The notes beneath the pieces are model-generated. The model was not told the DNA's origin and searched no databases. It saw nothing but the letters and a program-made list of their open reading frames with translations. A stretch of DNA of 64,000 bases, from IMG/VR virus record IMGVR_UViG_3300045988_147821, positions 1 to 64,000 of that record. One strand, 5' to 3'. Positions 32,609-46,794 of this stretch are shown one piece after another. The translations under genes were made by a program, and so were the position numbers. The stretch comes from a virus. How positions within the stretch are numbered: position 1 is the first letter of the stretch; each line of letters starts with the position of its first letter.

Positions 32609-34123
32609 TTATGCCAAACCTTCTTTACCGATATTAACGATACGAACAACTTTGGCAGGTTGGTATAATACAGGAGTACCGTAGTTCAAGATAGCAAATC
32701 TACGAGATGGAGATGTGATAGCGAAATCCATCTTCATAGTATCTGCGAACTGCAAGTATTCGTTGATTTCAGAGTTGTTGTAGCAAATCAATGCTGACTT
32801 GGTTCCGGCAATGATACGGTTACGGTCACGAACCTTGGTTGCGGCAGCACCGTCATATCCGGCAGCCAATTGAGATACTGAAACCTCAAAAATCGGGAAG
32901 TATTTGGTGTTGGCATCAATAACAGCGTTCTTTTCGGTACGATATACAACGAAACAAGTAGCTGCGTATGCACCGCCTACTCCGGCTGCGAACTGCAAAT
33001 CAACTGATTGCTGTGCTGTAACTGCGATAGCTGCATCAGACATAGCAACAGGAGCAGATTCACCGTAACGGTTCTTAGCTGTAACGATGTAACGGTAGTT
33101 ACCTGCATGGTTGGTGAAACGAGTTTTCGTATCACTGTTCTGTGCAGCAGCGTCAGCAGTCTTAGTAGGAGCAACAGGGGCTTTTGCAGAAGTAGCACGA
33201 TCGCCCAAACGTTTCGGCTTACGTTCATCGAAGAAACGGTCATTTTTAATATTCACACGACCGAACTGTGTAACAATGTCGTTTACGCTCTGACCCATTG
33301 TAGCACCCACAACAGAGTTAGGATAACCAACAAGAACACGTTTTGATTCGTGGAACTGTTTAACATAGTCGTTGAACACGATCGGATTAGAGATGATACG
33401 ATCAAATTCACCGTTATATACGTTAACGATTACATTGGCTGCATCCTCAACCAATTTGTCATTCAATACCGAACCGTCAGCATCAACAACAGCAGGGTCA
33501 TTGAAATAAGCATCCAAAACGTTTTCAGAAGTCATACCTTCAATTGTACCACCTTCTTTTGTTACAACACCGATCATGTGTTGGCGGAAGATGCCGTCAA
33601 ACTGTTCGGGAACACAAGAAGAATCGGCATCAACCAATCTGCGGTCAAGCATTGTTTGCAACAACAAAGTCTTGTTTTCAACTTCACGAGCGTACATCTT
33701 TACGCCACCAGCCAATTTAACAAGCATTGCAGGATGAGTAACCTGACCTGTAACACCCATGAACTTAGCAACGATTGAACGTCTGATGTATTGAGAATCG
33801 GTTTCTTCGGGGGTTTCACCTTCTGCATTGAAGATACCTACTTCCTCACCATATTTTGACAATTGGTTGTATTCGTGAACGGTGTTGTCGATTTTGTCTT
33901 TCGGCATTTCGTTCAGATAAACCAACTGATCCAAACGGTTAGTCAACACTTTCAGGACTGCATCCAAAGATTCAACTTTCAGACCACCACCTGTGTTAAC
34001 TTCGTTGTTGTACTGCATACCTGTTTTCAATCCGGCTTCCATAGCCTTCAAGATTTCGGCAGAGTTTTCGTTTCCTACTTGGAAACCGTCAAATGAACCA
34101 CTATAATTGTATAAATCTTCCAT
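32609..34123 (-). CDS. major capsid protein (504 aa)
   Basis: Follows the protease and an acidic scaffold-like gene, and is followed by the strongest terminator in the module. Size is typical of HK97-fold MCPs. The track start 34129 is a TTG; the first ATG is at 34123. Confidence 0.7.
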   Translation of the reverse strand: MEDLYNYSGSFDGFQVGNENSAEILKAMEAGLKTGMQYNNEVNTGGGLKVESLDAVLKVLTNRLDQLVYLNEMPKDKIDNTVHEYNQLSKYGEEVGIFNAEGETPEETDSQYIRRSIVAKFMGVTGQVTHPAMLVKLAGGVKMYAREVENKTLLLQTMLDRRLVDADSSCVPEQFDGIFRQHMIGVVTKEGGTIEGMTSENVLDAYFNDPAVVDADGSVLNDKLVEDAANVIVNVYNGEFDRIISNPIVFNDYVKQFHESKRVLVGYPNSVVGATMGQSVNDIVTQFGRVNIKNDRFFDERKPKRLGDRATSAKAPVAPTKTADAAAQNSDTKTRFTNHAGNYRYIVTAKNRYGESAPVAMSDAAIAVTAQQSVDLQFAAGVGGAYAATCFVVYRTEKNAVIDANTKYFPIFEVSVSQLAAGYDGAAATKVRDRNRIIAGTKSALICYNNSEINEYLQFADTMKMDFAITSPSRRFAILNYGTPVLYQPAKVVRIVNIGKEGLA

Positions 34124-34167
34124 ATTCAATGTATTTGTATTTTGTATCTAACTGTTAGCTTGCGCCA

Positions 34168-34839
34168 TTATTTGCACAAAACAAAACCTTTTGATTTAGC
34201 GTAGTTGTACAAGTTCTTTCCTACTGTGTTTGCATAGGAATCAAGCATGTATGTTTTGTAATCATCTTCGATTGACTTCTGAATGTTTTCATCAGCCTTT
34301 TCGTAAAGATTTTGCAACAGACTCTTGCAGAACTCACGCTGTCCTGTAACACTTACTTCCAACTTACCGTTTTTTTCATTCATTTCAGTGTCAATGGATT
34401 TTTCGATAGCAGACAAACCCATATCACCCTTAAACCCCGGAGCGGTGTTTTTTGCCATTGCATCAAATCTTTCATTGATTGACTTGTTCAGTTCAGCAAA
34501 ACCTTCTTTCATGCCTGCAACGATAGAAGCAGAAAGGCTTTCTCTGAAAGATTTGAGAACATCAGCGTCAAGTCCTTTTTCAACCTTGCCTTCTGAATCC
34601 TTATCTTCCTTGTAGTCCTTTTCATCTTCCTTCACTTTCTTTTCAGCATCAACAGCAGCCTTTTCCTCCTTGTCGATCTTTTCTTCCTGCTTAGTTTCCG
34701 ATTCGTTATCCCCGGCTTTTGCAGATTTTTCGATACGGATATTTCCGGCTTCGATTTGTTCAGCGATATATTCATCACTGAAAACAGCTTGAAGTGACTT
34801 GAACACTTCGTTGTCTTTGTATTCTTCTAAGTTTATCAT
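34168..34839 (-). CDS. scaffolding protein candidate (223 aa)
   Basis: Highly charged helical region (EEKIDKEEKAAVDAEKKVKEDEKDYKEDKD). Lies between the protease and the MCP. Confidence 0.6.
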   Translation of the reverse strand: MINLEEYKDNEVFKSLQAVFSDEYIAEQIEAGNIRIEKSAKAGDNESETKQEEKIDKEEKAAVDAEKKVKEDEKDYKEDKDSEGKVEKGLDADVLKSFRESLSASIVAGMKEGFAELNKSINERFDAMAKNTAPGFKGDMGLSAIEKSIDTEMNEKNGKLEVSVTGQREFCKSLLQNLYEKADENIQKSIEDDYKTYMLDSYANTVGKNLYNYAKSKGFVLCK

Positions 34840-34870: not shown

Positions 34871-35650
34871 TTATTCTGTTTTTCCGCTTACCATCTTCAT
34901 GTAATCCATAAGAACGGATTTATTTACATCCCCATTTTTGACCGCACAAACAAGTCTGTCAAAATCATCCTTGGAGAACTCCTTCTTATTGACAATGGAC
35001 AATTCAAGGCTCTTGTTTACAATAATAACATTTTTACCGCAATCCACTTTCAATAAAGGCAGATTATCCTCATAAACAAAGTCACCATTAGGAATATAAA
35101 AATCCTGTTTCTGCATACCCTTAACAATATCGGCATACGTATTACCGTTTACTGGATTCATTGTAAGGGCCACATTGGTAATCAGTGTTTTTGTTATGTG
35201 TTTAGGATTATCCTTATCTCTTTCCAACGCCTTTCCTTCAATGGAGAATCCTGGGGTACGCTTTGGTTCAGACTGTTCCATTTCAAGTGCTGTATCGTAG
35301 AATGCTCTTGCTTCGGAAGATTTGCTCCACAACTTACATTTCAAATAGAACTTATTTTTCTCAACCTTTGCTTCCAACGGAACTCCTATAAAGAAGCGAC
35401 TTTTGTTTATTGGGGAACGTGTAGGAAGATGATCTAAATTAATCAATCCACGCTTCTTGAACACGTCAAGAACAAAGCCGTTCGGCTCCATAGAATCACC
35501 TTCAAAGTCCTCTGAATTGTCAGAAGCAAGACCTTCAAATATCATATTCTGATATCTGCGATCATCACCTCTTTCATAATCCAACGGATTGAATTTTGAT
35601 TTATGAATGATGGCTTCCAGTGTGAAATTTAATCTGTTATCGTCAAACAC
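34871..35650 (-). CDS. prohead maturation protease (259 aa; alternative ATG start at 35545)
   Basis: GLASDNSEDFEGDSMEPNGF...LINLDH......IG......GFSIEGK resembles HK97-type/S78-like protease blocks. The listed start 35650 is a GTG right after an in-frame stop. Confidence 0.6.
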   Translation of the reverse strand: MFDDNRLNFTLEAIIHKSKFNPLDYERGDDRRYQNMIFEGLASDNSEDFEGDSMEPNGFVLDVFKKRGLINLDHLPTRSPINKSRFFIGVPLEAKVEKNKFYLKCKLWSKSSEARAFYDTALEMEQSEPKRTPGFSIEGKALERDKDNPKHITKTLITNVALTMNPVNGNTYADIVKGMQKQDFYIPNGDFVYEDNLPLLKVDCGKNVIIVNKSLELSIVNKKEFSKDDFDRLVCAVKNGDVNKSVLMDYMKMVSGKTE

Positions 35651-35724: not shown

Positions 35725-35761
35725 AAAAAGTGTCATGGAGCACATTTACGCGCCATGGCAC
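35725..35761 (-). terminator. rho-independent terminator after the Nudix gene
   Basis: Minus strand reads GTGCCATGG cgcgtaaatgtgct CCATGACAC TTTTTGATT, starting 9 nt after stop 35770. Confidence 0.65.
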
Positions 35762-35769
35762 CCGTTGTT

Positions 35770-37809
35770 TTAATGTAATTGTAATCGGTATATAGACTGT
35801 TTTGTCTTGACAAGAAAATCATCAATCAATGACAGTTCACCAAAGTAATCTTCATCCCCGTCCAACGATTTACGGAATTTGGTTGTTCTCTCAAACAACA
35901 GTTTGATGAACTTCAACGGATCAGATTCTTCGATTTCTTCCGATTCAACCGTATTGGCATCAAATCGCCCGAACAATGCCTGTCCTGATTCGGCAAGAGT
36001 ATCCTTAAAGTCATTCATCAAGTCACCCACTTCATCAAGATACACATGTTTAGAATTATCTTCTTCTGTCCAATGAAGATTGTCCTTACGGGTAATCATA
36101 CCCTGTAAGAAATTGATATAGGAGAGAAAATCGGCTTTCTTTGTCTTTTCAGATTTCTCTATATCATCATTTTCCTTTTTGACATCGTTTTCAACGGACT
36201 TATTTATTTCTTCGTTCCTTCTCAAACCATTTACATAAATACAGTTATGGTTAAACTTCCATTCCTGTTCACCGTTATCAGGAGTGATTACCTTGACTGA
36301 AAAATCAGCGCATCTCCCGGACACTTTCTGTATCATGCCCAACATGTCAAAGAACTTTTCCGCACTTTCGGAATTTACCCCCGAATAACTAAAAGAACCT
36401 TGTCCATATACATCTTCTATCGGCTTTTCATCAACCTCCACATATTTCTCCGAATACTGTCTTTTCTTGAATGAAATAGCCTTCTCCACCTTATCGTCAC
36501 CGTTTTCAACACCTGAACCCTGTGGACCAACAACTTCTTCTTTAAGACTTTCAGGAGCGATTTCCCCAGCATCGGCAGTAGTCATGGCTTTTTCTTCAAC
36601 ACCTGTTTCGTTTTCCGACTTCTCAACCTTTCCTTCTTTCTTCTCTCCCCATGATTCAGGTAACTTGTCTGTAAGACCAAGTTCCTTTGCACGTTTTCTT
36701 ATCCATGCCTTTACTTCTGATTTGGGCATGTCGGATGCTCCTACAAGACGTATGGCATCATGTAAATCCTGTTCGTTTCTGATAGGATATTTACCGTTCG
36801 GCATCGCTTCACCTTTCTTTGCAAGATCCTTTCTTTCTGAATGAGAAAAATAAGTTTTGTTCTGCGCTTTCAAAACTTCATCAGGATGCTCCTTACAATA
36901 GGTGTCAAATACTGATTTGCTGATATATCCTTCCGAATATGCTTTCAGTATCCTTGTTATACCGCATGAATCGTCAAGACCCATAATTCTTTTCAGATTC
37001 TCTTTCATATCGAAAATAAAGTTGTAATTATCAATTTTATCCAGTTTTATCCATGCAGAACCAACTTCCTCTTCGCTGTCAAGTAGGATGCTTGCACCTT
37101 CCTTTTCATCAAGAGTGACCATATAATAGTGAATGTCCGCATCGTTGTTTTTATAGGTGGCTACCTCACGTAAACGGTCTGCGGCCACCTCTATTCCCGT
37201 TTCCTCCCACAATTCTCTACGTGCAGCTACTTTAAATTCTTCTCCTTCATCTACATGACCTCCGGGAATACACCAATCATCCGTTGCCTCTCCCATATCG
37301 GTACAACGGTTAAGGATAAGTATTTTTATCCCATCGGGAGTGAACTTCTGAACAATAACATCCGCATATTTCACGGCACCCTTGCTTTTTAGAAAATCAA
37401 AGTACACAGATTTTGTTATCTGTTTCTTTTGATATAGGTATCTCATTTTTTCCGCCTTGTCAATCTCCTTGATTGCAATAGAAAGATCCTTGTCGGATGA
37501 AATGGATTTCATCACGCTCTCATTCTTTATAACAAGGCCACGTAAATCGGATACTTTTATCCCCTGTTCCTTGATAAAATCATCATATCGGTTCATTGCA
37601 TCCTTCATATCTTCATCCATTTCACCTTTCTCCATGAACATGGACTTCAATGCGGACATTTCAGAGAAAGACTTGGCAAGTTCATTTCCCTTGTCTTTGT
37701 ATTCATAAGACTTACGGACAGCACTTCTATATTTTCTAAGTTTATCCGAAGCAGTTTCTAACCCAAGTAAACTTCTTATATTCATAATCAAATTTTTAAA
37801 TAATCTCAT
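35770..37809 (-). CDS. 679-aa head-module protein with internal Nudix hydrolase domain
   Basis: Perfect Nudix box G-x5-E-x7-REUxEExGU at aa 184-206 (GHVDEGEEFKVAARRELWEETGI). Alternative start at ATG 37785. Also carries GEAMPNGKYPIRNEQDLHDAIRLVG....VKAWIRKRAKELGL, a motif I recall from phage head/scaffold-associated proteins. Confidence 0.8.
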   Translation of the reverse strand: MRLFKNLIMNIRSLLGLETASDKLRKYRSAVRKSYEYKDKGNELAKSFSEMSALKSMFMEKGEMDEDMKDAMNRYDDFIKEQGIKVSDLRGLVIKNESVMKSISSDKDLSIAIKEIDKAEKMRYLYQKKQITKSVYFDFLKSKGAVKYADVIVQKFTPDGIKILILNRCTDMGEATDDWCIPGGHVDEGEEFKVAARRELWEETGIEVAADRLREVATYKNNDADIHYYMVTLDEKEGASILLDSEEEVGSAWIKLDKIDNYNFIFDMKENLKRIMGLDDSCGITRILKAYSEGYISKSVFDTYCKEHPDEVLKAQNKTYFSHSERKDLAKKGEAMPNGKYPIRNEQDLHDAIRLVGASDMPKSEVKAWIRKRAKELGLTDKLPESWGEKKEGKVEKSENETGVEEKAMTTADAGEIAPESLKEEVVGPQGSGVENGDDKVEKAISFKKRQYSEKYVEVDEKPIEDVYGQGSFSYSGVNSESAEKFFDMLGMIQKVSGRCADFSVKVITPDNGEQEWKFNHNCIYVNGLRRNEEINKSVENDVKKENDDIEKSEKTKKADFLSYINFLQGMITRKDNLHWTEEDNSKHVYLDEVGDLMNDFKDTLAESGQALFGRFDANTVESEEIEESDPLKFIKLLFERTTKFRKSLDGDEDYFGELSLIDDFLVKTKQSIYRLQLH
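37192..37260 (-). other. Nudix box (aa 184-206)
   Basis: Direct match to GX5EX7REUXEEXGU. Confidence 0.85.
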
Positions 37810-38209
37810 CGCATACTAAAATACCGTCAGCAAAATAACTATGCGCCCGATTTACTTCAAGAGAATAGCATATCTTATTGATAGTTTCCATCTTTTCAAT
37901 ATCCACTATCTTCTTTATCCCTTTCAAAGTTAATAAACTATCTCCCTTTTTCAAATCCTTGACATATCTCCATCCATCTTCCGACATAACAAGCTGCACT
38001 CCTTGAAAACGATAACCTACAATATCATCATCACATCTTATATTATAGGAAACATCATATTTGGTTGCCAATTCCTGAACAAGTTTCTTGGCTATATGAT
38101 AGCTTTCCTTATAGGACATGACAGACATACCAACAACAATATCTTTGATGTATTTGTCACCCTCTATTGTCCTTATCGCTGTAAAACCCGAATTGAATCC
38201 CATAATCAT
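37796..38209 (-). CDS. free-standing degenerate Hint-fold (PT-HINT/mini-intein-like) protein (137 aa)
   Basis: GFNSGFTAIRTIEGDKYIKDIVVGMSV (block A-like, no Cys1) ... EDGWRYVKDLKKGDSLL ... ICYSLEVNRAHSYFADGILVCDEII* (block F/G-like, CD in place of HN). ATGA overlap upstream and a 14-nt overlap with the Nudix ORF. Confidence 0.6.
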   Translation of the reverse strand: MIMGFNSGFTAIRTIEGDKYIKDIVVGMSVMSYKESYHIAKKLVQELATKYDVSYNIRCDDDIVGYRFQGVQLVMSEDGWRYVKDLKKGDSLLTLKGIKKIVDIEKMETINKICYSLEVNRAHSYFADGILVCDEII

Positions 38210-38829
38210 TCCTCCCCTTTATATTCTGACTTGTTTCCTGTCAACACCCGTGCACTCTCCATATCCAATGCACGCAAGAAAGTATCTTCCATGACATAGG
38301 AGAATCCCGGCTCACATTCCACTTCATATATAGTAGATGTTACGGGAATACGGGTAACATTCATATTGTGCCGTCTGTAATAAATGATATTTGAACCGTA
38401 TGACATGGAATTTTCCGGCCCGATATCAGGCAAGCAATAATTCCCTTCAAGAACTTCACTCACTTTCTTTGTTATGAACGGCATCCATACCACATCATTA
38501 GGATTGTCGGGTATTTCCTTGCACATGATAAGAGTATCAGGGTGCATCAAGGGGAAACACGTTTTCTTTCCGACATAGTTCTTAAATTCCAATCGAAGCA
38601 AATCCCCCTCATATTCGATAGGGGTAACGCTTACGATGGTTCCATCGCAAAACTTCATGGAATTTCGGTCAAACAGCAAAGTAACAGGAGAGCCTTGCAC
38701 TGTTCTAAATGTCTTGTCACCTGTCATAATTCGTTTGTTTTCCTGTAACTCATTAAGAACTTTTGGGCTTTTAATCCCAAGAACATTCTCGTAGACACAC
38801 TTTATTCTTTGTCCTGAATCCAAAAACAT
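38206..38829 (-). CDS. free-standing degenerate Hint-like protein (207 aa)
   Basis: M-FLDSGQRI (block A-like with Met at the Cys1 position), IEYEGDLLRLEF..GKKTCFPLMHPDTLIM (pre-block-B/TxxH-like), IYEVECEPGFSYVMEDTFL (block F-like). No terminal HN. Confidence 0.5.
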   Translation of the reverse strand: MFLDSGQRIKCVYENVLGIKSPKVLNELQENKRIMTGDKTFRTVQGSPVTLLFDRNSMKFCDGTIVSVTPIEYEGDLLRLEFKNYVGKKTCFPLMHPDTLIMCKEIPDNPNDVVWMPFITKKVSEVLEGNYCLPDIGPENSMSYGSNIIYYRRHNMNVTRIPVTSTIYEVECEPGFSYVMEDTFLRALDMESARVLTGNKSEYKGEE

Positions 38830-38847
38830 GATTATAGGTTTTAATTG

Positions 38848-40890
38848 TTAAACATCAAATTCCTTAGTTCCAACCTTGATATGAATTTTGGATTTTCGTC
38901 TTACCTTTCTTTTCTCTTCTTTCATAGGAGAAGTGACGAACATCCTTAATTTTTCATCCCATTCATCAAACATCGGGTTGTAGTATTGGAGCGAGCAACG
39001 GCAATTACCTGATACACATACCTTATTGTTTCTACGAATAATTAACGTATGATTTCTTTCCAATTCAACATCATATATATATCCCTCATATTCTATGACA
39101 TTTTCCTGTATTCTTCTTTTAAGATTGTACTTATTTTTTAATACATTTATCCATAAAATATCATTCTTAGATATATATACCTTTCCCCTTTTTACATCAT
39201 TATAATACCGTTTACCTGTATTTTTAAAAGAAGGTCTTTCTCCGGTTTTTAAAATCAATTCACCCAAATCATCAGCCAATCTTTTACTAGTTGTTATATA
39301 ATGAACTTGTGGCTTAAATTGATACCCTTTCCACACTTTTCCTTTATGAATAGTACCATCTCCAAGTCTAAATGCTTCTAAAAATAAAGAAATGTTTTCC
39401 GAAGTTGTTTGCTTTATAAAATCAGGAACATATCTTACATCTTGCTTTCCTAAATTATAGAAAAACAAAAGTAATTCAGGTTTACTGCAAGCAGAAATAG
39501 TGATTCTATCTTTATCATTTCTAGCCTTTTCCCCAAACAAAGAAGAAGAACATAACCACATCTTTTCCTTAACCTCTTGCTTTAATTGAATCAATTGGAT
39601 TAATTTTCTATCTTCAACCAATGTTCCATCTGAAAGCCAATAGCCCAAAAATTCACAAAACAACTTAAAATCATACTTTATTCCATCAAACTCAATATAC
39701 TCTAAATCAGTTCCTTTCCATTTAGGTATAGTAACTAAAAAGGTAAAATCTTTAGGAAGATCGCTTTCCTTTACTAACAATATATTTCTACCCCTTCCTT
39801 TATTATACTTATTTGTACCAACATGTACATGATTAGGGGTTGTACAAAGGTTATAATCTCTACTAACTCTTTCTATCATAATACCTTTATATTGTTGGTT
39901 TATATACTTAATTGCTTGCACATATTCACCTTCACCAGAACTAGGATTAACTGACAAAAATAATTCATCACCCTTTAAGTCTTTAAAAAACATAAACCCT
40001 TTGTCAGTAAGAACCTCTGTTTTATCATCATAACAGAAAGGGTGCGTAGCCTGGACAGTAGGAAGCCATTCTCTCTGCCTTCTCCCTACGTTGGTCCCAT
40101 TGGCAAGCAATTCTTTCAGTTTGAAAATTTTGGGCCTTGAACCAAGTCCATTTGTAGTAAAGAAACGTATGCAATATGAGCATGCACCATTGAACACTGT
40201 CTTATATACAAGGGCATCCTCACCATGCAAGTCAAGAATACTAAGTGCAGTTCCTTCCTCAAAGATATTCTGCATCTCTGTTTCCATGATACGAAGCCAG
40301 TCCTTTTCCCATATCTGCGTTCTATGACCTATGTCACTTACAATCTGTTTTATAGTCTGTTTTTTATTGAATACAGCACCATTCATAACAGCTTCCTGAA
40401 TCACCCTGCGTTCAGCTTCTGCCTGTGCATTGTCATATTGGGATGCAACCTCTCCAAGAATAGCTTCTGCCACATCCTTTTTCATCTTATCTCCAAGACC
40501 TTTGAGATAGGTATATGTTTTTGTAGCCGCCACACCAAGCCGCATTTGATCTGTAAGCGTCAATTGGGAAACCTGTTCGGATGATACGAATTTATAAAAG
40601 TCAGCATATCCTAATGATGCAGTCTGTCTTGGTTCAAGAACTCCGGCAAGTCTACCGAAAATCATGGCCTGCTGATATGGTGGGATTCGCTTCATCTCCT
40701 TTTCAAAATCAAAGTTGAACTCTTTAAGGAGTTTCTTGTCTGATTCCGAAATAAACTGTTTCCCCAACACTTTTACGATAAGACGAACAAGACGATAGTC
40801 TATTATTCTGAATATCCTCTTGATTACTCCGTCCTGTTCATAAAAAGGTGGATAAAACCTCAAATCCTTATCTATCCTGTTTTCTGCCAT
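38848..40890 (-). CDS. MuF / SPP1 gp7-type head morphogenesis protein interrupted by an intein (680 aa precursor; 336-aa spliced product)
   Basis: Joining the exteins restores ..GACSYCIRFF...WLPTVQATHPF|CRCSLQYYNP, the MuF H-P-x-C-R-C signature. Position directly after the portal. Confidence 0.8.
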   Translation of the reverse strand: MAENRIDKDLRFYPPFYEQDGVIKRIFRIIDYRLVRLIVKVLGKQFISESDKKLLKEFNFDFEKEMKRIPPYQQAMIFGRLAGVLEPRQTASLGYADFYKFVSSEQVSQLTLTDQMRLGVAATKTYTYLKGLGDKMKKDVAEAILGEVASQYDNAQAEAERRVIQEAVMNGAVFNKKQTIKQIVSDIGHRTQIWEKDWLRIMETEMQNIFEEGTALSILDLHGEDALVYKTVFNGACSYCIRFFTTNGLGSRPKIFKLKELLANGTNVGRRQREWLPTVQATHPFCYDDKTEVLTDKGFMFFKDLKGDELFLSVNPSSGEGEYVQAIKYINQQYKGIMIERVSRDYNLCTTPNHVHVGTNKYNKGRGRNILLVKESDLPKDFTFLVTIPKWKGTDLEYIEFDGIKYDFKLFCEFLGYWLSDGTLVEDRKLIQLIQLKQEVKEKMWLCSSSLFGEKARNDKDRITISACSKPELLLFFYNLGKQDVRYVPDFIKQTTSENISLFLEAFRLGDGTIHKGKVWKGYQFKPQVHYITTSKRLADDLGELILKTGERPSFKNTGKRYYNDVKRGKVYISKNDILWINVLKNKYNLKRRIQENVIEYEGYIYDVELERNHTLIIRRNNKVCVSGNCRCSLQYYNPMFDEWDEKLRMFVTSPMKEEKRKVRRKSKIHIKVGTKEFDV
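39004..40035 (-). mobile_element. LAGLIDADG-type intein (344 aa)
   Basis: Cys1 (TGT, 40033-40035) in CYDDKTEVLTDKGF. Block B is TTPNH. Two LAGLIDADG motifs (FLGYWLSDGT, LFLEAFRLGDGT). Block F is IYDVELERNHTLI. Terminal ..VSGN (Asn 39004-39006) followed by +1 Cys (39001-39003). Confidence 0.85.
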
Positions 40891-41080
40891 AATCTATCAG
40901 TTCTTCCGTTATCTGCTTTATCATGTTAGAAATTTCATCCTTATAGATGTCGTTGGCCTCACTCTCATATACATCCTGAACCTTTGGGAAAGGAGGTTGC
41001 TCCTTTGTCCGGGATTTATAGAATATCTTCCCATCAGGAGCAATCTTTTTAATGAATTGAAGTCCTTTTTGCATTATCAT
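40868..41080 (-). CDS. hypothetical protein (70 aa)
   Basis: ATG ORF between portal and MuF, overlapping both (4 nt and 23 nt). Confidence 0.5.
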   Translation of the reverse strand: MIMQKGLQFIKKIAPDGKIFYKSRTKEQPPFPKVQDVYESEANDIYKDEISNMIKQITEELIDYGRKQDR

Positions 41081-42810
41081 TCACCTCCAAACATCTTGTT
41101 GATAACTTCCGTGGCCCTGTCCATGATGGGATTGTCACCATACATGGATTTGTATTTTGCAAATGGATCTTCTTCCTCTGCTGCCACATTGGATGATGGT
41201 TGCTCTTCCTCATTCTCCACACCTTCCACTTCACCTCCGTTCATCTGACCTCCCATGGCAGCAGCGTTATCCTTGTTGATTTTATAATTCATCCATACGG
41301 AATTGAGGATTGTGTCCTTTTCAGGATTGAACGGTCTGCCTGAATATGCTTCAAAAGCATCCTCCAATGAGATCATTCCTGCTTCAAGTTTCTTCTTGTC
41401 GATTTCCACTTTCAATGCTTCATCTTCAAGATCAACGCCTGTAAAAGCAAACTCGAATGATTCATCAAGTTCCGATACAAGATATCTTGTTATGATTTCT
41501 TGTAGGAAGGATAACATGGGTTTAAGACCTTTCTCACGTGAATGCTTTAATCTCTGTCGTTGGCCGTCCTGTCCGAACATCTGTGCGGATTCCTTGAACT
41601 GGAATCCTAGTTCTGAGGGGTCTATACGATAGACAGAACATATCAGCACAATAAGGAATTGGTTCCATAAATTGTACTCCATATCCTTGTTGTTTTTGGT
41701 CAAATCAATCCATTCAACCTGTGATTGTGCCAAAACAGGGATTCTTCCTGCGTTTTGAGGTCCTGCCATCATTTGATACCACATTTGCCTAAACTCGTTC
41801 AAAGTGGTTTGGGAAACATTTTCACCCTTGATATTCAACAGACCTTTGGGGAATACGCCATTCTTGAATGAATTACCATTGGATTGTAAGGACCATAAGA
41901 ACCATGTCACAATCTCATTGAGTGTTTCAAGTTCCGAAACCCCGTATCCGTTACGGTAGACATCGGTTGACTTGTTACGCACCCCGAAACCGAGTTCCCA
42001 CGGGTAATAGACGATTGATTCGCCTGTGACGGGATTTTTGAGAATCTGATTATCCCACACCATACAGTAGCGGGGCAAATATCCCTTAAACCGATATTTC
42101 TCGAACTCCTGCCTGTTCCGTGGGTCAACCGCACCAAGGAAACGTACAAGTGACGCGTCCACCGCCTTGAATCTGTCAAGTTCCCACATCCTGTTTCTTG
42201 TGGTTTCAAACGCAAGCTGGTCAAGTGTCAGCGAATCAAACGAAATCTTTCTTATGAAGTCGGGAAGGGTATCATAGTTATCCCATTTGTCGGTGTTGCC
42301 ACCTCGTTCCAGGAACTCCACGATTTTTTCTACCTTCTTCTTGTCTTTCGATGATAAAGACAAATCTCCCGGATCAAACAAACCTCTTTTCTTTCTGATG
42401 GTATAACCTTCCTTCTGCTCGTCATCGGAGAAGTGCAGGAAGTTCTGTATCTGCTCTATACGTGTGTTTACGATGGCCCTTACAAGATAAATTCCACCCA
42501 TTCTACGTAACGTACTGAATGGAAGAATACCTCTTTGAGCAAGATAATCACGTCCACTATCGTTCCATACCTGCGGATCAAAGAAAACGGATTGAAGTTT
42601 TCCATTATCCGAAGTCTTTGAACCAAGATACAGATTTGCTTTCATCACATCTTCCACATCCCTAGACATCATAGAAGATTGTAATTTTGATTGCAAAAGC
42701 ATGGGAACAGTCTTGCTTAATCTGTCCAGTTCATTGAAATCAAGGGAAGCCAAAGACTTCAACAAGTCAGGCTTCCCATTTTTATATGTATTTTTCCGTT
42801 TTCTACTCAT
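41077..42810 (-). CDS. portal protein (577 aa)
   Basis: Size and position immediately upstream of MuF. The track start 42843 is a TTG that would overlap the upstream gene; the first ATG is at 42810. Confidence 0.6.
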   Translation of the reverse strand: MSRKRKNTYKNGKPDLLKSLASLDFNELDRLSKTVPMLLQSKLQSSMMSRDVEDVMKANLYLGSKTSDNGKLQSVFFDPQVWNDSGRDYLAQRGILPFSTLRRMGGIYLVRAIVNTRIEQIQNFLHFSDDEQKEGYTIRKKRGLFDPGDLSLSSKDKKKVEKIVEFLERGGNTDKWDNYDTLPDFIRKISFDSLTLDQLAFETTRNRMWELDRFKAVDASLVRFLGAVDPRNRQEFEKYRFKGYLPRYCMVWDNQILKNPVTGESIVYYPWELGFGVRNKSTDVYRNGYGVSELETLNEIVTWFLWSLQSNGNSFKNGVFPKGLLNIKGENVSQTTLNEFRQMWYQMMAGPQNAGRIPVLAQSQVEWIDLTKNNKDMEYNLWNQFLIVLICSVYRIDPSELGFQFKESAQMFGQDGQRQRLKHSREKGLKPMLSFLQEIITRYLVSELDESFEFAFTGVDLEDEALKVEIDKKKLEAGMISLEDAFEAYSGRPFNPEKDTILNSVWMNYKINKDNAAAMGGQMNGGEVEGVENEEEQPSSNVAAEEEDPFAKYKSMYGDNPIMDRATEVINKMFGGE

Positions 42811-42823
42811 TTCTGCAAAAATA

Positions 42824-44317
42824 TTATGCCGAAGCTCCAGCAAGTTGATTAAGTGCCACAGTAGCTTCTTTTCCGCCCTCTGTTGCCGTTACCACCGCCG
42901 AACCTGTACGGACTGCGCCTGTATTTGCGGCTGCAACTACCGAATAATCCGTAGAGCCTTTAGTAAATCCCGTGCCGGAAACAACTGTCGTATAAGTTAC
43001 AACAATAGGTGCACCTGAATCCTTTCCGTTCACTTTCTTCTGCTTATTTGAAGTAACGCCAAACACCTTGGTTTCTCCAGCTGCGGCAAATTGAAGTGAA
43101 GTGGGGTCAACTGTAAGTTCATATTCATAAGTTACAGTGGCTGCGGACTGGGTTAAAGTTATTTCGGCAGTCTTTCCACCTTCACTTGCAGTAATGGTAA
43201 CTTTTCCTGTCCGCTGTGATTCGGTTGTATTTTCAGCCGCAACAACTGTTGTATCATTACTACCTTTCGTAAATCCTGCTCCTGAAACAGTAGTCGTGTA
43301 ACCTACATTAACAGGAGAACCTGAATTTTTACCATTTACCTTCTTCTGCTTTTCGGAAACCACATTAAATGACTTGGATTCACCCTTTGCAACGAAAGCA
43401 ATACTTGTGGGCGTAGGAAGCAAAGAATATTCGTATGTAATGACGGATGCTGCCTGTGTAAGATCCACTGTCACACTCTTACCACCTTCATCCATAGTAA
43501 TGGTTGCAGTTCCCTTTCTCTGCGTATTACCTGGATTTTCAGTCACCTTAATGTTGAATCCATCGGAAATGGCTTCATGGGAGAATCCTGCTCCGGCAAG
43601 TTCTATATCCGTACCTATCTTTGTAGGAGCCCCTGACGGTTTTCCATTTACCACAGTCTGTTTGGTTGAAGTAACGGTCACTTTCTTTGTTTCTCCCGTA
43701 TTCACAAATAAAAGTGTCTTTGGATCTACCACCAAATTGTAAGTATAGGTTACAGTGGATGCAGCTTGCGTAAGGTCAATAGTAATCTTCTTATTGCTCT
43801 CATGCTGTGTTACGGTCAAAACCCCGTTTCTTATGGAATTGGTAGGATTTTCAGGAATTGTCACCGTTCCACCTTCACTTACTGCATAAGGAAGTTGTGT
43901 TTCAAAGTCAACTTCCAACGGTGTTTGTACACCTGTCGGCTTTCCGTTTACATAAAGTTGCTTATAGGAAGTAACAACAGCCTCTATGCTGTCACCTTCC
44001 TTGGGAAACGCCATTGTCTTATCTTGCGGAATAAGAAAATAACGCATCTCTTCAACTATATCAACAAGAATCTGTTCCTTTCCTCCCAACTCTTCTGGAT
44101 AAGCTATAAGTTGCAGTGCATGGTTTGTGGCCCATTGTTTGAATACTCCGATATTATAGGTCAGTCCGGCACGTATCACAACACCCATACCCTCATAATA
44201 TTCCCTGTCACCTATGACATTTTCAGTCACAAAAACATTCATTTGGCTGTCTATGCCATCAGTAATGACCGTTAAACGGTGACTTTCATCTCTATTTATA
44301 AACAACAGCCGTAACAT
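42824..44317 (-). CDS. protein with four tandem BACON/Ig-like repeats (497 aa)
   Basis: ~95-aa repeats ending ..TVDLTQ / ..ITLTQ / ..VALNQ, with an L-x-(V/P)-x-P-x-(T/S)-(L/I)-x-F...G(E/T)-(T/S)-K-x-(F/V)-x-V-x-S...(E/A)N-(P/T)...R-(K/T)-G-x-(A/V)-x-(I/V)-T pattern typical of BACON domains. The N-terminal ~90 aa is shared with the two upstream paralogs. Confidence 0.65.
   Translation of the reverse strand: MLRLLFINRDESHRLTVITDGIDSQMNVFVTENVIGDREYYEGMGVVIRAGLTYNIGVFKQWATNHALQLIAYPEELGGKEQILVDIVEEMRYFLIPQDKTMAFPKEGDSIEAVVTSYKQLYVNGKPTGVQTPLEVDFETQLPYAVSEGGTVTIPENPTNSIRNGVLTVTQHESNKKITIDLTQAASTVTYTYNLVVDPKTLLFVNTGETKKVTVTSTKQTVVNGKPSGAPTKIGTDIELAGAGFSHEAISDGFNIKVTENPGNTQRKGTATITMDEGGKSVTVDLTQAASVITYEYSLLPTPTSIAFVAKGESKSFNVVSEKQKKVNGKNSGSPVNVGYTTTVSGAGFTKGSNDTTVVAAENTTESQRTGKVTITASEGGKTAEITLTQSAATVTYEYELTVDPTSLQFAAAGETKVFGVTSNKQKKVNGKDSGAPIVVTYTTVVSGTGFTKGSTDYSVVAAANTGAVRTGSAVVTATEGGKEATVALNQLAGASA
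42827..43975 (-). repeat. four tandem ~95-aa BACON-like repeats (protein level)
   Basis: See the parent CDS. Repeat units are clearly alignable by eye. Confidence 0.6.
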
Positions 44318-44319
44318 AA

Positions 44320-44901
44320 TTAATCTGCTTTAGCGGTGAACTCAAACTTCTGAATGCCGCCCTCTGCCATAATAACCACATTCAAATCCTCTTTGTCTAC
44401 AAGACCCATATCTTCCATTGTCAGAACAACAGGAACACGACTAAGGATATTTGTCACAAGACCTTTGCGATCACCACGGATAACACCCCATCTTCCGGCA
44501 GATTCATTCAGTGTTACGGTATTAGGGAAATAAATTTCAACTTCTTTTTTGATAGGAAGCTGTGTTCTTACGGTGATAACACATTCATCATCCCCATTCC
44601 ATTCCACATTTGCAGATACGATTTCATTCTGTCCTTGCGGATTCAGTTCAAGGATAAGAGCGTTGTTTTCCGCAAATGCAACAAGTTCCTGGTGCATTAC
44701 AGGTTGACCGACAACCCAGTTGAATCCCAATGCCTGCATATTGTCGCTTCCTTCAATTTCATCCGCAGTGGCATCAACATTTCCACGGCTTACAATACCA
44801 CGTATCTCGGTAATGAAAATGCGTTCCTGATCACAACTACCATCGGTAACAACAGTAACGTCAATCTTCTTATCTGTGTCAATAAATCTATATAATCTCA
44901 T
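44320..44901 (-). CDS. paralog-family protein B (193 aa)
   Basis: N-terminus MRLYRFIDTDKKIDVTVVTDGSCDQERIFITE aligns with the N-termini of 44960..45604 and 42824..44317. Confidence 0.6.
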   Translation of the reverse strand: MRLYRFIDTDKKIDVTVVTDGSCDQERIFITEIRGIVSRGNVDATADEIEGSDNMQALGFNWVVGQPVMHQELVAFAENNALILELNPQGQNEIVSANVEWNGDDECVITVRTQLPIKKEVEIYFPNTVTLNESAGRWGVIRGDRKGLVTNILSRVPVVLTMEDMGLVDKEDLNVVIMAEGGIQKFEFTAKAD

Positions 44902-44959: not shown

Positions 44960-45604
44960 TCAAAACAGAGGTGACGGATTCACAGGAAGCATTACAACAG
45001 TCATTGTAGCAGACTTGTTATAGGGTTCCGGCAGAACTGCATTTATACCGAAGAATGCCTGTCTGCCTATCGGGTCATTGTCCATAAGACACATGACCGT
45101 CCTGTCGCTATCCTTCACCTTAAAAAACTGTTCATGCACATTCACAGAGTTCCCTGACCAACTGTATGAAGTGGCATACGGTATCTTTATAAGTTCCGAT
45201 TTTCCGCCATCGGGAGTAAACAGAAGGTTGCATGTAATAAATAAGGGATGAATTTCTCCCTTGACTTTCAAATACAGTTTTTTCGGCTCTATGCTTACAT
45301 CAAGGACAGAAGTTCCACGTGAAACTATTGTCTTTTCTTCCTTTCCATCAGCACAAACATTTCTTTCATCCTCTTCCGAATAGGATTCAAGAAGTTCCAT
45401 CTCCATCAGCTTGGCAAGAAGTTCCATCTCTTCCATGCTCACACAGCTACCCTTTTTGGGCCACAACCCTTTTTCATTCACAAGAATGTCCGCACCATCC
45501 CCACTGGGGCTTTCTGTAATGTTGAAAACGGATTGCGTGCCCCATCCGTCAGTAGGAATGGTGACACGTATTCCGTTGTTGTCTGTAAATATCAGCGATT
45601 TCAT
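44960..45604 (-). CDS. paralog-family protein A (214 aa)
   Basis: N-terminus MKSLIFTDNNGIRVTIPTDGWGTQSVFNITE shares the x-F-x-D...V-T-x-x-T-D-G...Q..F-x-T-E signature. Confidence 0.6.
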   Translation of the reverse strand: MKSLIFTDNNGIRVTIPTDGWGTQSVFNITESPSGDGADILVNEKGLWPKKGSCVSMEEMELLAKLMEMELLESYSEEDERNVCADGKEEKTIVSRGTSVLDVSIEPKKLYLKVKGEIHPLFITCNLLFTPDGGKSELIKIPYATSYSWSGNSVNVHEQFFKVKDSDRTVMCLMDNDPIGRQAFFGINAVLPEPYNKSATMTVVMLPVNPSPLF

Positions 45605-46290: not shown

Positions 46291-46794
46291 TTATTGATTT
46301 TCAGATTGTTTTTTGTTTTCACATGGCCTTTTGGCAAATCCATTCTCATCGAAGTCACTCAAATACTTCCGAATCCATTTCGGAACAAGATTAGGATTTA
46401 TCTTTGCCGCATTTTCCGCTATTGACATCGCTTCCCGAATGATAAGGGATGTGCATACCAATGTATAGAACCATCCGAACCCTTCAACCACCGAACCACG
46501 AACAGTAAATGATGATGCGATGTTCGCCATGATAAGCAATGAAAAATAAACCAATAGTTTCAATCCTATCATGGAGAACCCTTTAGAGGACAGATCTCTT
46601 TTTATGAAATGATATACCCACGAAAGAATAGTGTCTATTACAATCAGAGATACAAGAAACTTTAGATAGGCCCAATCATTAAAGAGAAATTCCTCAAAAA
46701 AATCCGCTATAAAGCTAAGCGGCAATCCCATGATAACCGGGTAATAGAAGGAAAAGACATATTTCCTAAACCGTTTTTTTACAAAATCCTGCAT
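46291..46794 (-). CDS. holin-like membrane protein (Phage_holin_4_1 / LL-H-type pattern, 167 aa)
   Basis: LIVIDTILSWV...K.DLSSKGFSMIGLKLLVYFSLLIMANI...LIIREAMSIAENAAKI matches the ID..tG...SSK.g..G..KK......E..SIlEN pattern of that holin family. Multiple TM helices. Confidence 0.6.
   Translation of the reverse strand: MQDFVKKRFRKYVFSFYYPVIMGLPLSFIADFFEEFLFNDWAYLKFLVSLIVIDTILSWVYHFIKRDLSSKGFSMIGLKLLVYFSLLIMANIASSFTVRGSVVEGFGWFYTLVCTSLIIREAMSIAENAAKINPNLVPKWIRKYLSDFDENGFAKRPCENKKQSENQ

Follow-up and report, generated by a model that had tools for sequence, protein, structure and literature searches.

A conserved head-module cassette of gut phages with a stand-alone, catalytically degenerate Hint protein and a large Nudix protein

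The four-gene locus and its stand-alone Hint protein

The present analysis deals with a locus in the virus record IMGVR_UViG_3300045988_147821, of which positions 1-64,000 (the whole stretch of 64,000 nucleotides, referred to as the window) were analysed. At 35,770-40,890, between the genes for the portal and the prohead protease, lie four minus-strand open reading frames (ORFs), and their position and coordinates agree with a preliminary description of this DNA. From the portal side they are ORF1 (38848..40890), 680 amino acids (aa), which encodes a putative MuF-like minor head protein (extein 336 aa) interrupted by an intein; ORF2 (38206..38829), 207 aa, which has no family match; ORF3 (37796..38209), 137 aa, a stand-alone Hint-domain protein that is catalytically degenerate; and ORF4 (35770..37809), 679 aa, a multidomain Nudix protein. 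ORF1 and ORF2 share a frame with one TAA and 18 nucleotides (nt) between them, and ORF2 overlaps ORF3 by 4 nt (ATGA). The unusual part of the locus is the conserved, stand-alone and dead Hint protein. On our best reading it is this domesticated inactive protein that is new, the theme of a cargo cassette having already been published for Nudix.

Hint domains are self-cleaving modules within larger proteins. ORF3 matches the Pfam family PT-HINT (PF07591) with an E-value of 6.9e-8 and a score of 33.3 bits, the gathering cut-off being 27.7. A phmmer search with ORF3 against 1.84e9 representative proteins returned 174 Hint-containing matches; seven of them are stand-alone proteins of 139-149 aa and most of the others are stretches within larger proteins. 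The profile of the stand-alone family aligns over its full length with the gp41-1 mini-intein in the PDB (8e-9) and also finds the structure 2lwy, a bacterial intein-like (BIL) domain (2.5e-3). Matches of the same profile to PDB 'Tako8' entries were discarded as a repeat artefact.

The catalytic positions of ORF3 were mapped on an alignment with canonical Hint domains, anchored on a hidden Markov model (HMM). At position 1 the cysteine is replaced by F/N, within a conserved FN[ST]GF; in place of the TxxH of block B the window has QGVQ, and other clades have SGDS or SGEQ; and the terminal HN has become CD, after which come EII and the stop codon (C-terminus LVCDEII). The preliminary description had called this ORF Hint-like but devoid of catalytic residues, and with a PT-HINT score above the cut-off and these replacements it was right. 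The stand-alone Hint proteins have only 2-8 residues ahead of the domain and 0-3 behind it, which leaves nothing for cleavage or splicing to act on. That ORF3 is a bare Hint domain lacking the residues for self-cleavage or splicing, and thus a stand-alone and non-catalytic protein, is well supported by these comparisons. One lineage (L077/P0026) retains Cys1, TGDH and the terminal Asn, which suggests that the ORF3 family descends from an active Hint domain. ORF3 is found at full length in all clades at 30-39% identity, with the family-specific residues FNSGF, KD, R67 and Y115 conserved; as it is conserved though inactive, a non-catalytic role is indicated.

Comparison with known Hint proteins brings out what is peculiar to ORF3. 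It resembles PT-HINT and BIL domains in its score, which exceeds the PT-HINT gathering threshold, and in the match of its family profile to 2lwy; however, those domains sit in larger proteins and cleave them, whereas ORF3 is free-standing and has neither the nucleophile nor the TxxH nor the HN. Among solved structures its best match by sequence is gp41-1 (PDB 6qaz, 6riz), and both are about 130-150 aa long. A similar likeness can be drawn to the mini-intein in the MuF-like gene of the related locus L012. Unlike these mini-inteins, ORF3 resides in no host protein and has nothing to splice, and the copy in the window lacks the catalytic residues. No fused MuF-Hint or Hint-Nudix protein occurred among the 150 best representative matches. 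The literature that was searched has no description of a Hint protein in phage heads that stands alone or is inactive.

The ten closest matches that are not stand-alone (P0011, P0013, P0015-P0022) have several Hint-family matches each. Several of them have 2-4 tandem Hint domains, and some add Tim44-like, CARDB or PKD domains or pilin-type N-methylation motifs. To our knowledge no function has been described for tandem Hint arrays.

Viral contigs were scanned with the ORF3 family, which gave 119 relatives; 80 loci were fetched and, together with loci gathered earlier, 81 distinct loci were available. Since ORF3 was the query, the presence of a Hint gene in 81 of 81 loci holds by construction, and only the constancy of its neighbours is informative. 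It was found that the order portal, MuF-like protein, an ORF of about 200 aa (in most loci), Hint, Nudix, protease, scaffold and capsid is kept in all 81 loci as far as the length of the contig permits. Nudix homologues of 583-801 aa are encoded in every related locus that is long enough, and 0-4 extra ORFs lie between the Nudix and protease genes. ORF3 is a stand-alone ORF in every one of the loci and is never embedded upstream of a cargo domain in a larger polypeptide. The conservation of gene order that the preliminary description wished to see checked is therefore real; the four genes recur as a head-module unit, the ORF of about 200 aa being the member that is not in all loci. A GenBank representative from human faeces, MT835500.1 (L005), has a MuF-like gene without intein, a Hint protein of 151 aa and a Nudix protein, and has no ORF2. 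The ratio of nonsynonymous to synonymous substitution rates (dN/dS) is 0.10 for Hint (range 0.06-0.10), 0.09 for the middle ORF and 0.08 for Nudix.

The junctions between the genes are mostly 4-nt ATGA overlaps, and the frame relations vary among clades at every junction; from Hint to Nudix the window has a shift of +1, MT835500.1 one of -1. In addition, inserted genes for TnpB (OrfB_IS605 with a Cas12f1-like TNB domain) separate Hint from Nudix in L059 and L066 (7511-8719), and in MT835500.1 one such gene (L005 6329-7540) lies between the portal and the MuF-like gene. The varying frames and the TnpB insertions that split the genes exclude an obligatory polyprotein. The comparison of the loci shows four separate predicted proteins that are constrained by purifying selection and whose order is fixed across the family. 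These are gut phages of about 55-140 kb, and their hosts are probably Bacteroidota.

The Nudix protein, the MuF-like protein and ORF2

ORF4 contains a Nudix domain at aa 162-262 (Pfam NUDIX 1.1e-17), which also matches the MutT/Nudix structure 2b06 in the PDB (2.2e-8). The Nudix box GHVDEGEEFKVAARRELWEETGI (aa 184-206; 37192..37260, minus strand) fits the regular expression GX5EX7REUXEEXGU; it is canonical and intact, as the preliminary description had said. ORF4 is apparently an active Nudix enzyme within a large multidomain protein. The Nudix domain further matches positions 540-625 of the 794-position profile phrog_15528 (4.5e-9), which is annotated 'portal protein'. The 14-nt overlap with ORF3 that had been reported holds if the first ATG is used. 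However, ORF4 more likely begins at Met9 (37785), since relatives begin with MNI[RK]..LGLQ, and this start leaves a gap of 10 nt from ORF3.

Two other modules can be recognised in ORF4. The KGEAMPNGKYPIRN... module (aa 280-384; 36658..36972, minus strand) has no Pfam family, and in tblastn it matches, at 2e-9 to 3e-9, Gordonia phage GMA6 and a protein of Caudovirales GX15bay annotated as portal. With its motif KGEAMPNGKYPIRNEQDLHDAIRLVG, this stretch of about 100 aa was seen again in actinophages, namely in the head-module proteins of Gordonia and Microbacterium phages, and also in a mangrove-soil phage, where the protein is annotated as portal. At the C-terminus (aa 552-678; 35776..36156, minus strand) lies a Dps/ferritin-like module matching phrog_858 (1.9e-6). 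In tblastn this part of the protein finds 'putative DpsA' from crAss-like phages (1e-9 to 4e-8), and it reaches DUF5856 at 5.3e-4, which is under the cut-off of that family. The homologue in MT835500.1 is full length and 44.5% identical.

The extein of ORF1 had been assigned to the MuF/SPP1-gp7 type, and this identity can be retained only in part. The curated MuF model of Pfam (PF04233) matched neither the spliced extein nor nine diverse members of its family, the NCBIfam model for SPP1 gp7 did not match the three members tested, and a PDB profile search with the family found nothing. On the other side, five of the nine members matched phrog_115, 'minor head protein' (best 4.1e-5), and two of the nine phrog_4728, 'head morphogenesis' (4.6e-4). 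With tblastn, ORF1 finds 'minor capsid protein' genes of SP-10-like Bacillus phages, among them that of Bacillus phage Nachito (7e-27), a homologue which is likewise missed by Pfam. The motif HP[FY]CRC does not vary within the family and is co-linear with the NCRC of SPP1 gp7 and Mu gp30. An hhalign comparison of the family with these two proteins is also co-linear and ends on the CRC motif, at an E-value of 0.12. The gene adjoins that of the portal. By position, motif order and PHROG matches the ORF1 extein is a putative, divergent MuF-like minor head protein.

The intein of ORF1 was also part of the preliminary description, and here a comparison with relatives is decisive. The loci L002-L004, which are 97-99% identical over the region, lack exactly the segment 40035..39004 of the window, and in them HPF-CRC is restored. 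As such close relatives lack precisely this segment, the intein is genuine. It comprises 344 aa (ORF1 aa 286-629; 39004..40035, minus strand) with the junctions HPF/C...SGN/CRC, and its anatomy is that of class 1: Cys1 (Cys286), the block B sequence TPNH, and SGN629 followed by Cys630. It has Gly, not His, as the penultimate residue. The endonuclease domain scores above the cut-off of LAGLIDADG_3 (2.3e-5). The insert is a genuine mobile LAGLIDADG intein, the splicing itself being predicted, and as an intein it is ordinary. Across the wider family three kinds of alleles exist at this site: no intein (316-349 aa), a mini-intein of 148 aa (464 aa) and a LAGLIDADG intein (655-680 aa). The MuF-like gene of 464 aa, with the 148-aa mini-intein and no endonuclease at the HPF/CRC site, was seen in L012, L014, L015 and L017.

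Portal genes of the family carry inteins as well. In L001 and L003 a 1350-nt in-frame intein occupies a site equal to about 41704 of the window. The portal of L001 (3629-6733) has 1034 aa as against 588 aa in the window, its insertion matching Pfam Intein_splicing (1.5e-12) and LAGLIDADG_3 (2.2e-12), and portal alleles of about 1000 aa are found in about half of the related loci. The window combines an intein-less portal with an intein-bearing MuF-like gene. The coexistence of intein-less, mini-intein and LAGLIDADG alleles in the same genes provides a natural series for the study of intein turnover in phage structural genes.

ORF2 had been described as a second degenerate Hint ORF. Of this pair ORF3 is demonstrably Hint, but ORF2 gave no Hint signal in any test. 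It had no match among Pfam, PHROG, NCBIfam or PDB sequences; hhalign gave a probability of 0.2% against the Hint family of ORF3; and a custom HMM built from 240 Hint domains, which does detect the inteins of the MuF gene, found nothing in it. Prediction of its fold by AlphaFold did not help, as the two runs, the second with an alignment of 14 rows including positional analogues, ended at a predicted local distance difference test (pLDDT) score of 35 and 33, and the models were too poor to use. No profile search recovered the Hint fold that had been expected for the 207-aa ORF. Nevertheless ORF2 is kept within the clade of the window with a dN/dS of 0.065, and it is by these measures a real and constrained gene.

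In its place 68 other loci have an ORF of 185-203 aa, the consensus of which, GYKGD...LYNI.A..EY...IIHE, ends at the stop codon. Homology between ORF2 and these positional analogues was considered and rejected, the HMM giving an E-value of 0.06 (a single target) and hhalign a probability of 0.2%. Short co-linear motifs seen by eye (SM.FC, Y.G, ...LYN/IYE...EY) are without statistical support and are not claimed. The analogues, too, are not detectably homologous to Hint.

A possible cassette for capsid-carried enzymes

The relatives of the locus carry a variety of enzymes in the interval between portal and protease. Zeta-toxin-like kinases are present in 58 of the 81 loci, PBECR1 proteins in 18 and ADP-ribosylglycohydrolases in 12. 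Genes of this kind can be seen at L026 3009-3938, L010 11627-12475, L012 9959-12532 and 12678-13562, and L079 9375-12035. Other ORFs in the same interval, of 343-886 aa, have no assigned identity. The interval of the window itself contains none of the three enzymes and none of these ORFs. In Bacillus phage Nachito (L090, OP380492.1) the segment 6977-12433 encodes the minor capsid protein, a 97-aa ORF, an 866-aa PARP protein (PARP catalytic domain 7e-17) and the portal, which is the same theme of a NAD-linked enzyme beside a minor head protein.

The idea of a head-packaged Nudix protein is not new. Published work predicts that phage Nudix proteins, whose genes lie in late clusters or which are joined to MuF, the portal or the capsid-processing peptidase, are probably packaged and injected (Iyer et al. 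2022, Viruses 14:1977; PMC9503650). ORF4 resembles them in that its gene belongs to a late or head cluster near the portal, the MuF-like protein and the protease, and in that a related Nudix domain is fused to the portal in phrog_15528. It differs in being a separate multidomain protein of 679 aa, fused to neither MuF nor portal nor protease, and in being always preceded, in the related loci, by a stand-alone Hint ORF. For PBECR and zeta-toxin-like kinase domains fused to MuF (PBECR also to the portal), packaging and injection have likewise been predicted (Iyer et al. 2017, PMC5512222). Here, too, a minor head protein beside the portal goes with enzymatic cargo, and the relatives carry the Zeta-toxin-like kinase and PBECR1; but the cargo is unfused, the MuF-like protein is not recognised by the curated models, and no immunity gene was seen. 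With Alt and IPI-III of phage T4 (PMC5512222) the locus shares the concept of head-packaged enzymes that are ejected with the DNA. The sequences are unrelated, and neither a capsid-targeting sequence nor a protease cleavage site was identified in the present proteins. In the literature searched, we met no account of the trio of a MuF-like protein, a stand-alone dead Hint protein and a large Nudix protein, which occurs in at least 81 loci.

We lean, by a modest degree, towards reading the locus as a head-module cassette for capsid-carried enzymes that includes a non-catalytic Hint protein. The capsid-delivered effector system of the preliminary description is in this sense a reasonable reading for the Nudix protein, given the cargo-type enzymes of the relatives, although it is not an original one. 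The Nudix protein would be made together with the capsid proteins and taken up by the prohead, where it would probably lie close to the portal alongside the MuF-like protein. It would leave the head when the DNA is ejected; packaging and ejection are what we infer from the published theme and from the enzymes at the same place in relatives. Once in the cell it could be hydrolysing a nucleotide-diphosphate compound early in infection. The Hint protein may be a domesticated Hint or mini-intein domain that has been kept for a non-catalytic role. Its origin may lie in the splitting of a MuF-Hint-effector polyprotein, or else a circulating mini-intein may have been captured. Our guess is that it could serve as an assembly or adaptor factor for the loading or tethering of a large cargo protein. 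The stronger proposal, that the extein-less dead Hint family is a non-enzymatic adaptor or chaperone for cargo loading, coupling the MuF-like protein to large ejected enzymes, is doubtful, and we put it forward only tentatively.

Several observations weigh against a cassette for capsid-carried enzymes. The presence of these proteins in the virion and their ejection come from the reasoning just given, and for the Hint protein an adaptor role is guesswork. ORF3 itself served as the query by which the loci were gathered. Distant cultured relatives, Bacteroides phage DAC19 and Chryseobacterium phage MA9V-3, have a Nudix gene of 226-235 aa between the MuF-like gene and the protease; no Hint ORF was found in these two phages or in contigs of Sulfuricurvum and Tannerella metagenome-assembled genomes, and a Hint protein is therefore not required for a head-module Nudix. 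The MuF assignment of ORF1 lacks a match to PF04233 and to the NCBIfam SPP1 gp7 model, and its hhalign comparison with SPP1 gp7 and Mu gp30 is not significant. The Nudix domain rises above no equivalog cut-off of NCBIfam (best 37.6 bits as against 245), and since these matches fall so far under their cut-offs its substrate class cannot be assigned. Finally, a conserved Ser/Thr (Ser7), one residue past the position-1 column, leaves ORF3 a small chance of residual N-terminal chemistry.

The most serious competitor, possible though rather unlikely in our judgement, is that the Nudix protein and the small ORFs are not ejected effectors but act in the producing cell during assembly, for instance as core or scaffold, in nucleotide housekeeping or in Dps-like handling of metal or DNA, or that they are structural accessories of head and neck. 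The genes lie between portal and protease/scaffold, the usual site of scaffolding and internal proteins. The Nudix protein is no bare enzyme but a large multidomain one, helical in its N-terminal region and Dps-like at its end, and neither an immunity gene nor a toxin-like feature was seen, all of which would suit such a role. It fits less well that the same interval of the relatives holds conflict enzymes such as the Zeta-toxin-like kinase, the PBECR1 nuclease and the ADP-ribosylglycohydrolase, or that related Nudix domains are fused to the portal in phrog_15528, and the intact Nudix box argues for catalysis beyond structure. It is much less probable that ORF2 and ORF3 are functionless remains of inteins, or of some other mobile element, in the course of decay. 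These genomes are indeed rich in inteins, in the MuF-like as in the portal genes, the catalytic residues of ORF3 have been lost, and ORF2 is missing in some clades (L005, L012-L017, L077, L085). Yet the dN/dS of about 0.1 for ORF3 and of 0.065-0.09 for ORF2 and its analogues is the same as that of the Nudix protein, and ORF3, which has no homing endonuclease and is inserted in no host protein, has stayed at full length across clades with its family-specific residues intact.

The preliminary description also saw in the locus the logic of polymorphic toxins, in which MuF, Hint and a releasable cargo act together. MuF polymorphic toxins were reportedly treated by Jamet and colleagues in 2017. The order of genes does mirror that of polymorphic toxins, which have a trafficking domain, PT-HINT and then the toxin; in the MuF-type toxins, the releasing peptidase is papain-like and not HINT (Zhang et al. 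2012, PMC3482391). For the locus this would mean a MuF-ORF2-Hint-Nudix polyprotein, formed by read-through or frameshifting, from which Hint autoproteolysis frees the cargo, and the tight packing of the ORFs, with ORF1 and ORF2 in frame across a single TAA, could be taken in its favour. We consider it the least credible of the explanations. The frames differ between clades at every junction, from Hint to Nudix even in sign between the window and MT835500.1; TnpB genes stand between Hint and Nudix in two loci; and none of the 150 representative Hint matches is a fused homologue. A separate, extein-less polypeptide in which the catalytic residues are missing cannot release a cargo by autoproteolysis, and this part of the earlier proposal has to be given up.

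If the locus does encode capsid-carried enzymes, its position in the biology of these phages would be of interest. Enzymes carried in the capsid act ahead of any phage gene expression, and for this reason they are well placed against defences that use NAD-derived or nucleotide signals. The phage family is abundant in gut metagenomes and offers a compact, conserved cassette in which the cargo is encoded by separate genes beside the minor head protein, so that cargo genes could easily be deleted singly. A free, conserved and non-catalytic Hint protein would, if true, mean that the Hint fold has been reused for a new, non-proteolytic purpose.

Genes flanking the locus

All flanking genes discussed here are on the minus strand. 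The portal gene (41077..42843) is the intein-less allele of 588 aa and matches Pfam Phage_portal (4.6e-18) and phrog_12 (4.3e-36). The ORF list further contains a 70-aa ORF (40868..41080) which overlaps the end of the portal gene and the start of ORF1; Pfam and PHROG scans gave no match for it. On the other side, directly 3' of the stop codon of ORF4, RNA folding predicts a terminator-like hairpin followed by U5 (about 35725..35763, minus strand) with a folding free energy of -16.7 kcal/mol and a z-score of -2.1. The terminator attributed to the unit by the preliminary description thus exists as a hairpin with its U5, but it is absent from the list of a consensus terminator scan.

Beyond the hairpin follow the prohead (head maturation) protease (34871..35650; phrog_1028, 6.4e-32), an acidic scaffold-like protein of 223 aa (34168..34839) and the major capsid protein (32609..34129; phrog_752, 3.5e-57; Pfam SU10_MCP, 9.4e-7). 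The scaffold-like protein has no family match; it was named from its position and composition and is kept in 70 related loci. A megablast of the locus against GenBank phages matched nothing.

Just upstream of the head module a holin is encoded at 46291-46794 (Phage_holin_4_1, 1.6e-15). Between it and the portal gene lie three successive ORFs (42824-44317, 44320-44901 and 44960-45604) with a common N-terminal module, exemplified by MRLYRFIDTDKKIDVTVVTDGS and MLRLLFINRDESHRLTVITDGIDS. The largest of the three contains BACON repeats (5.3e-13). The BACON domain is associated with Bacteroidota, and a host from this phylum fits the presence of the repeats. The same three ORFs also occur in MT835500.1.

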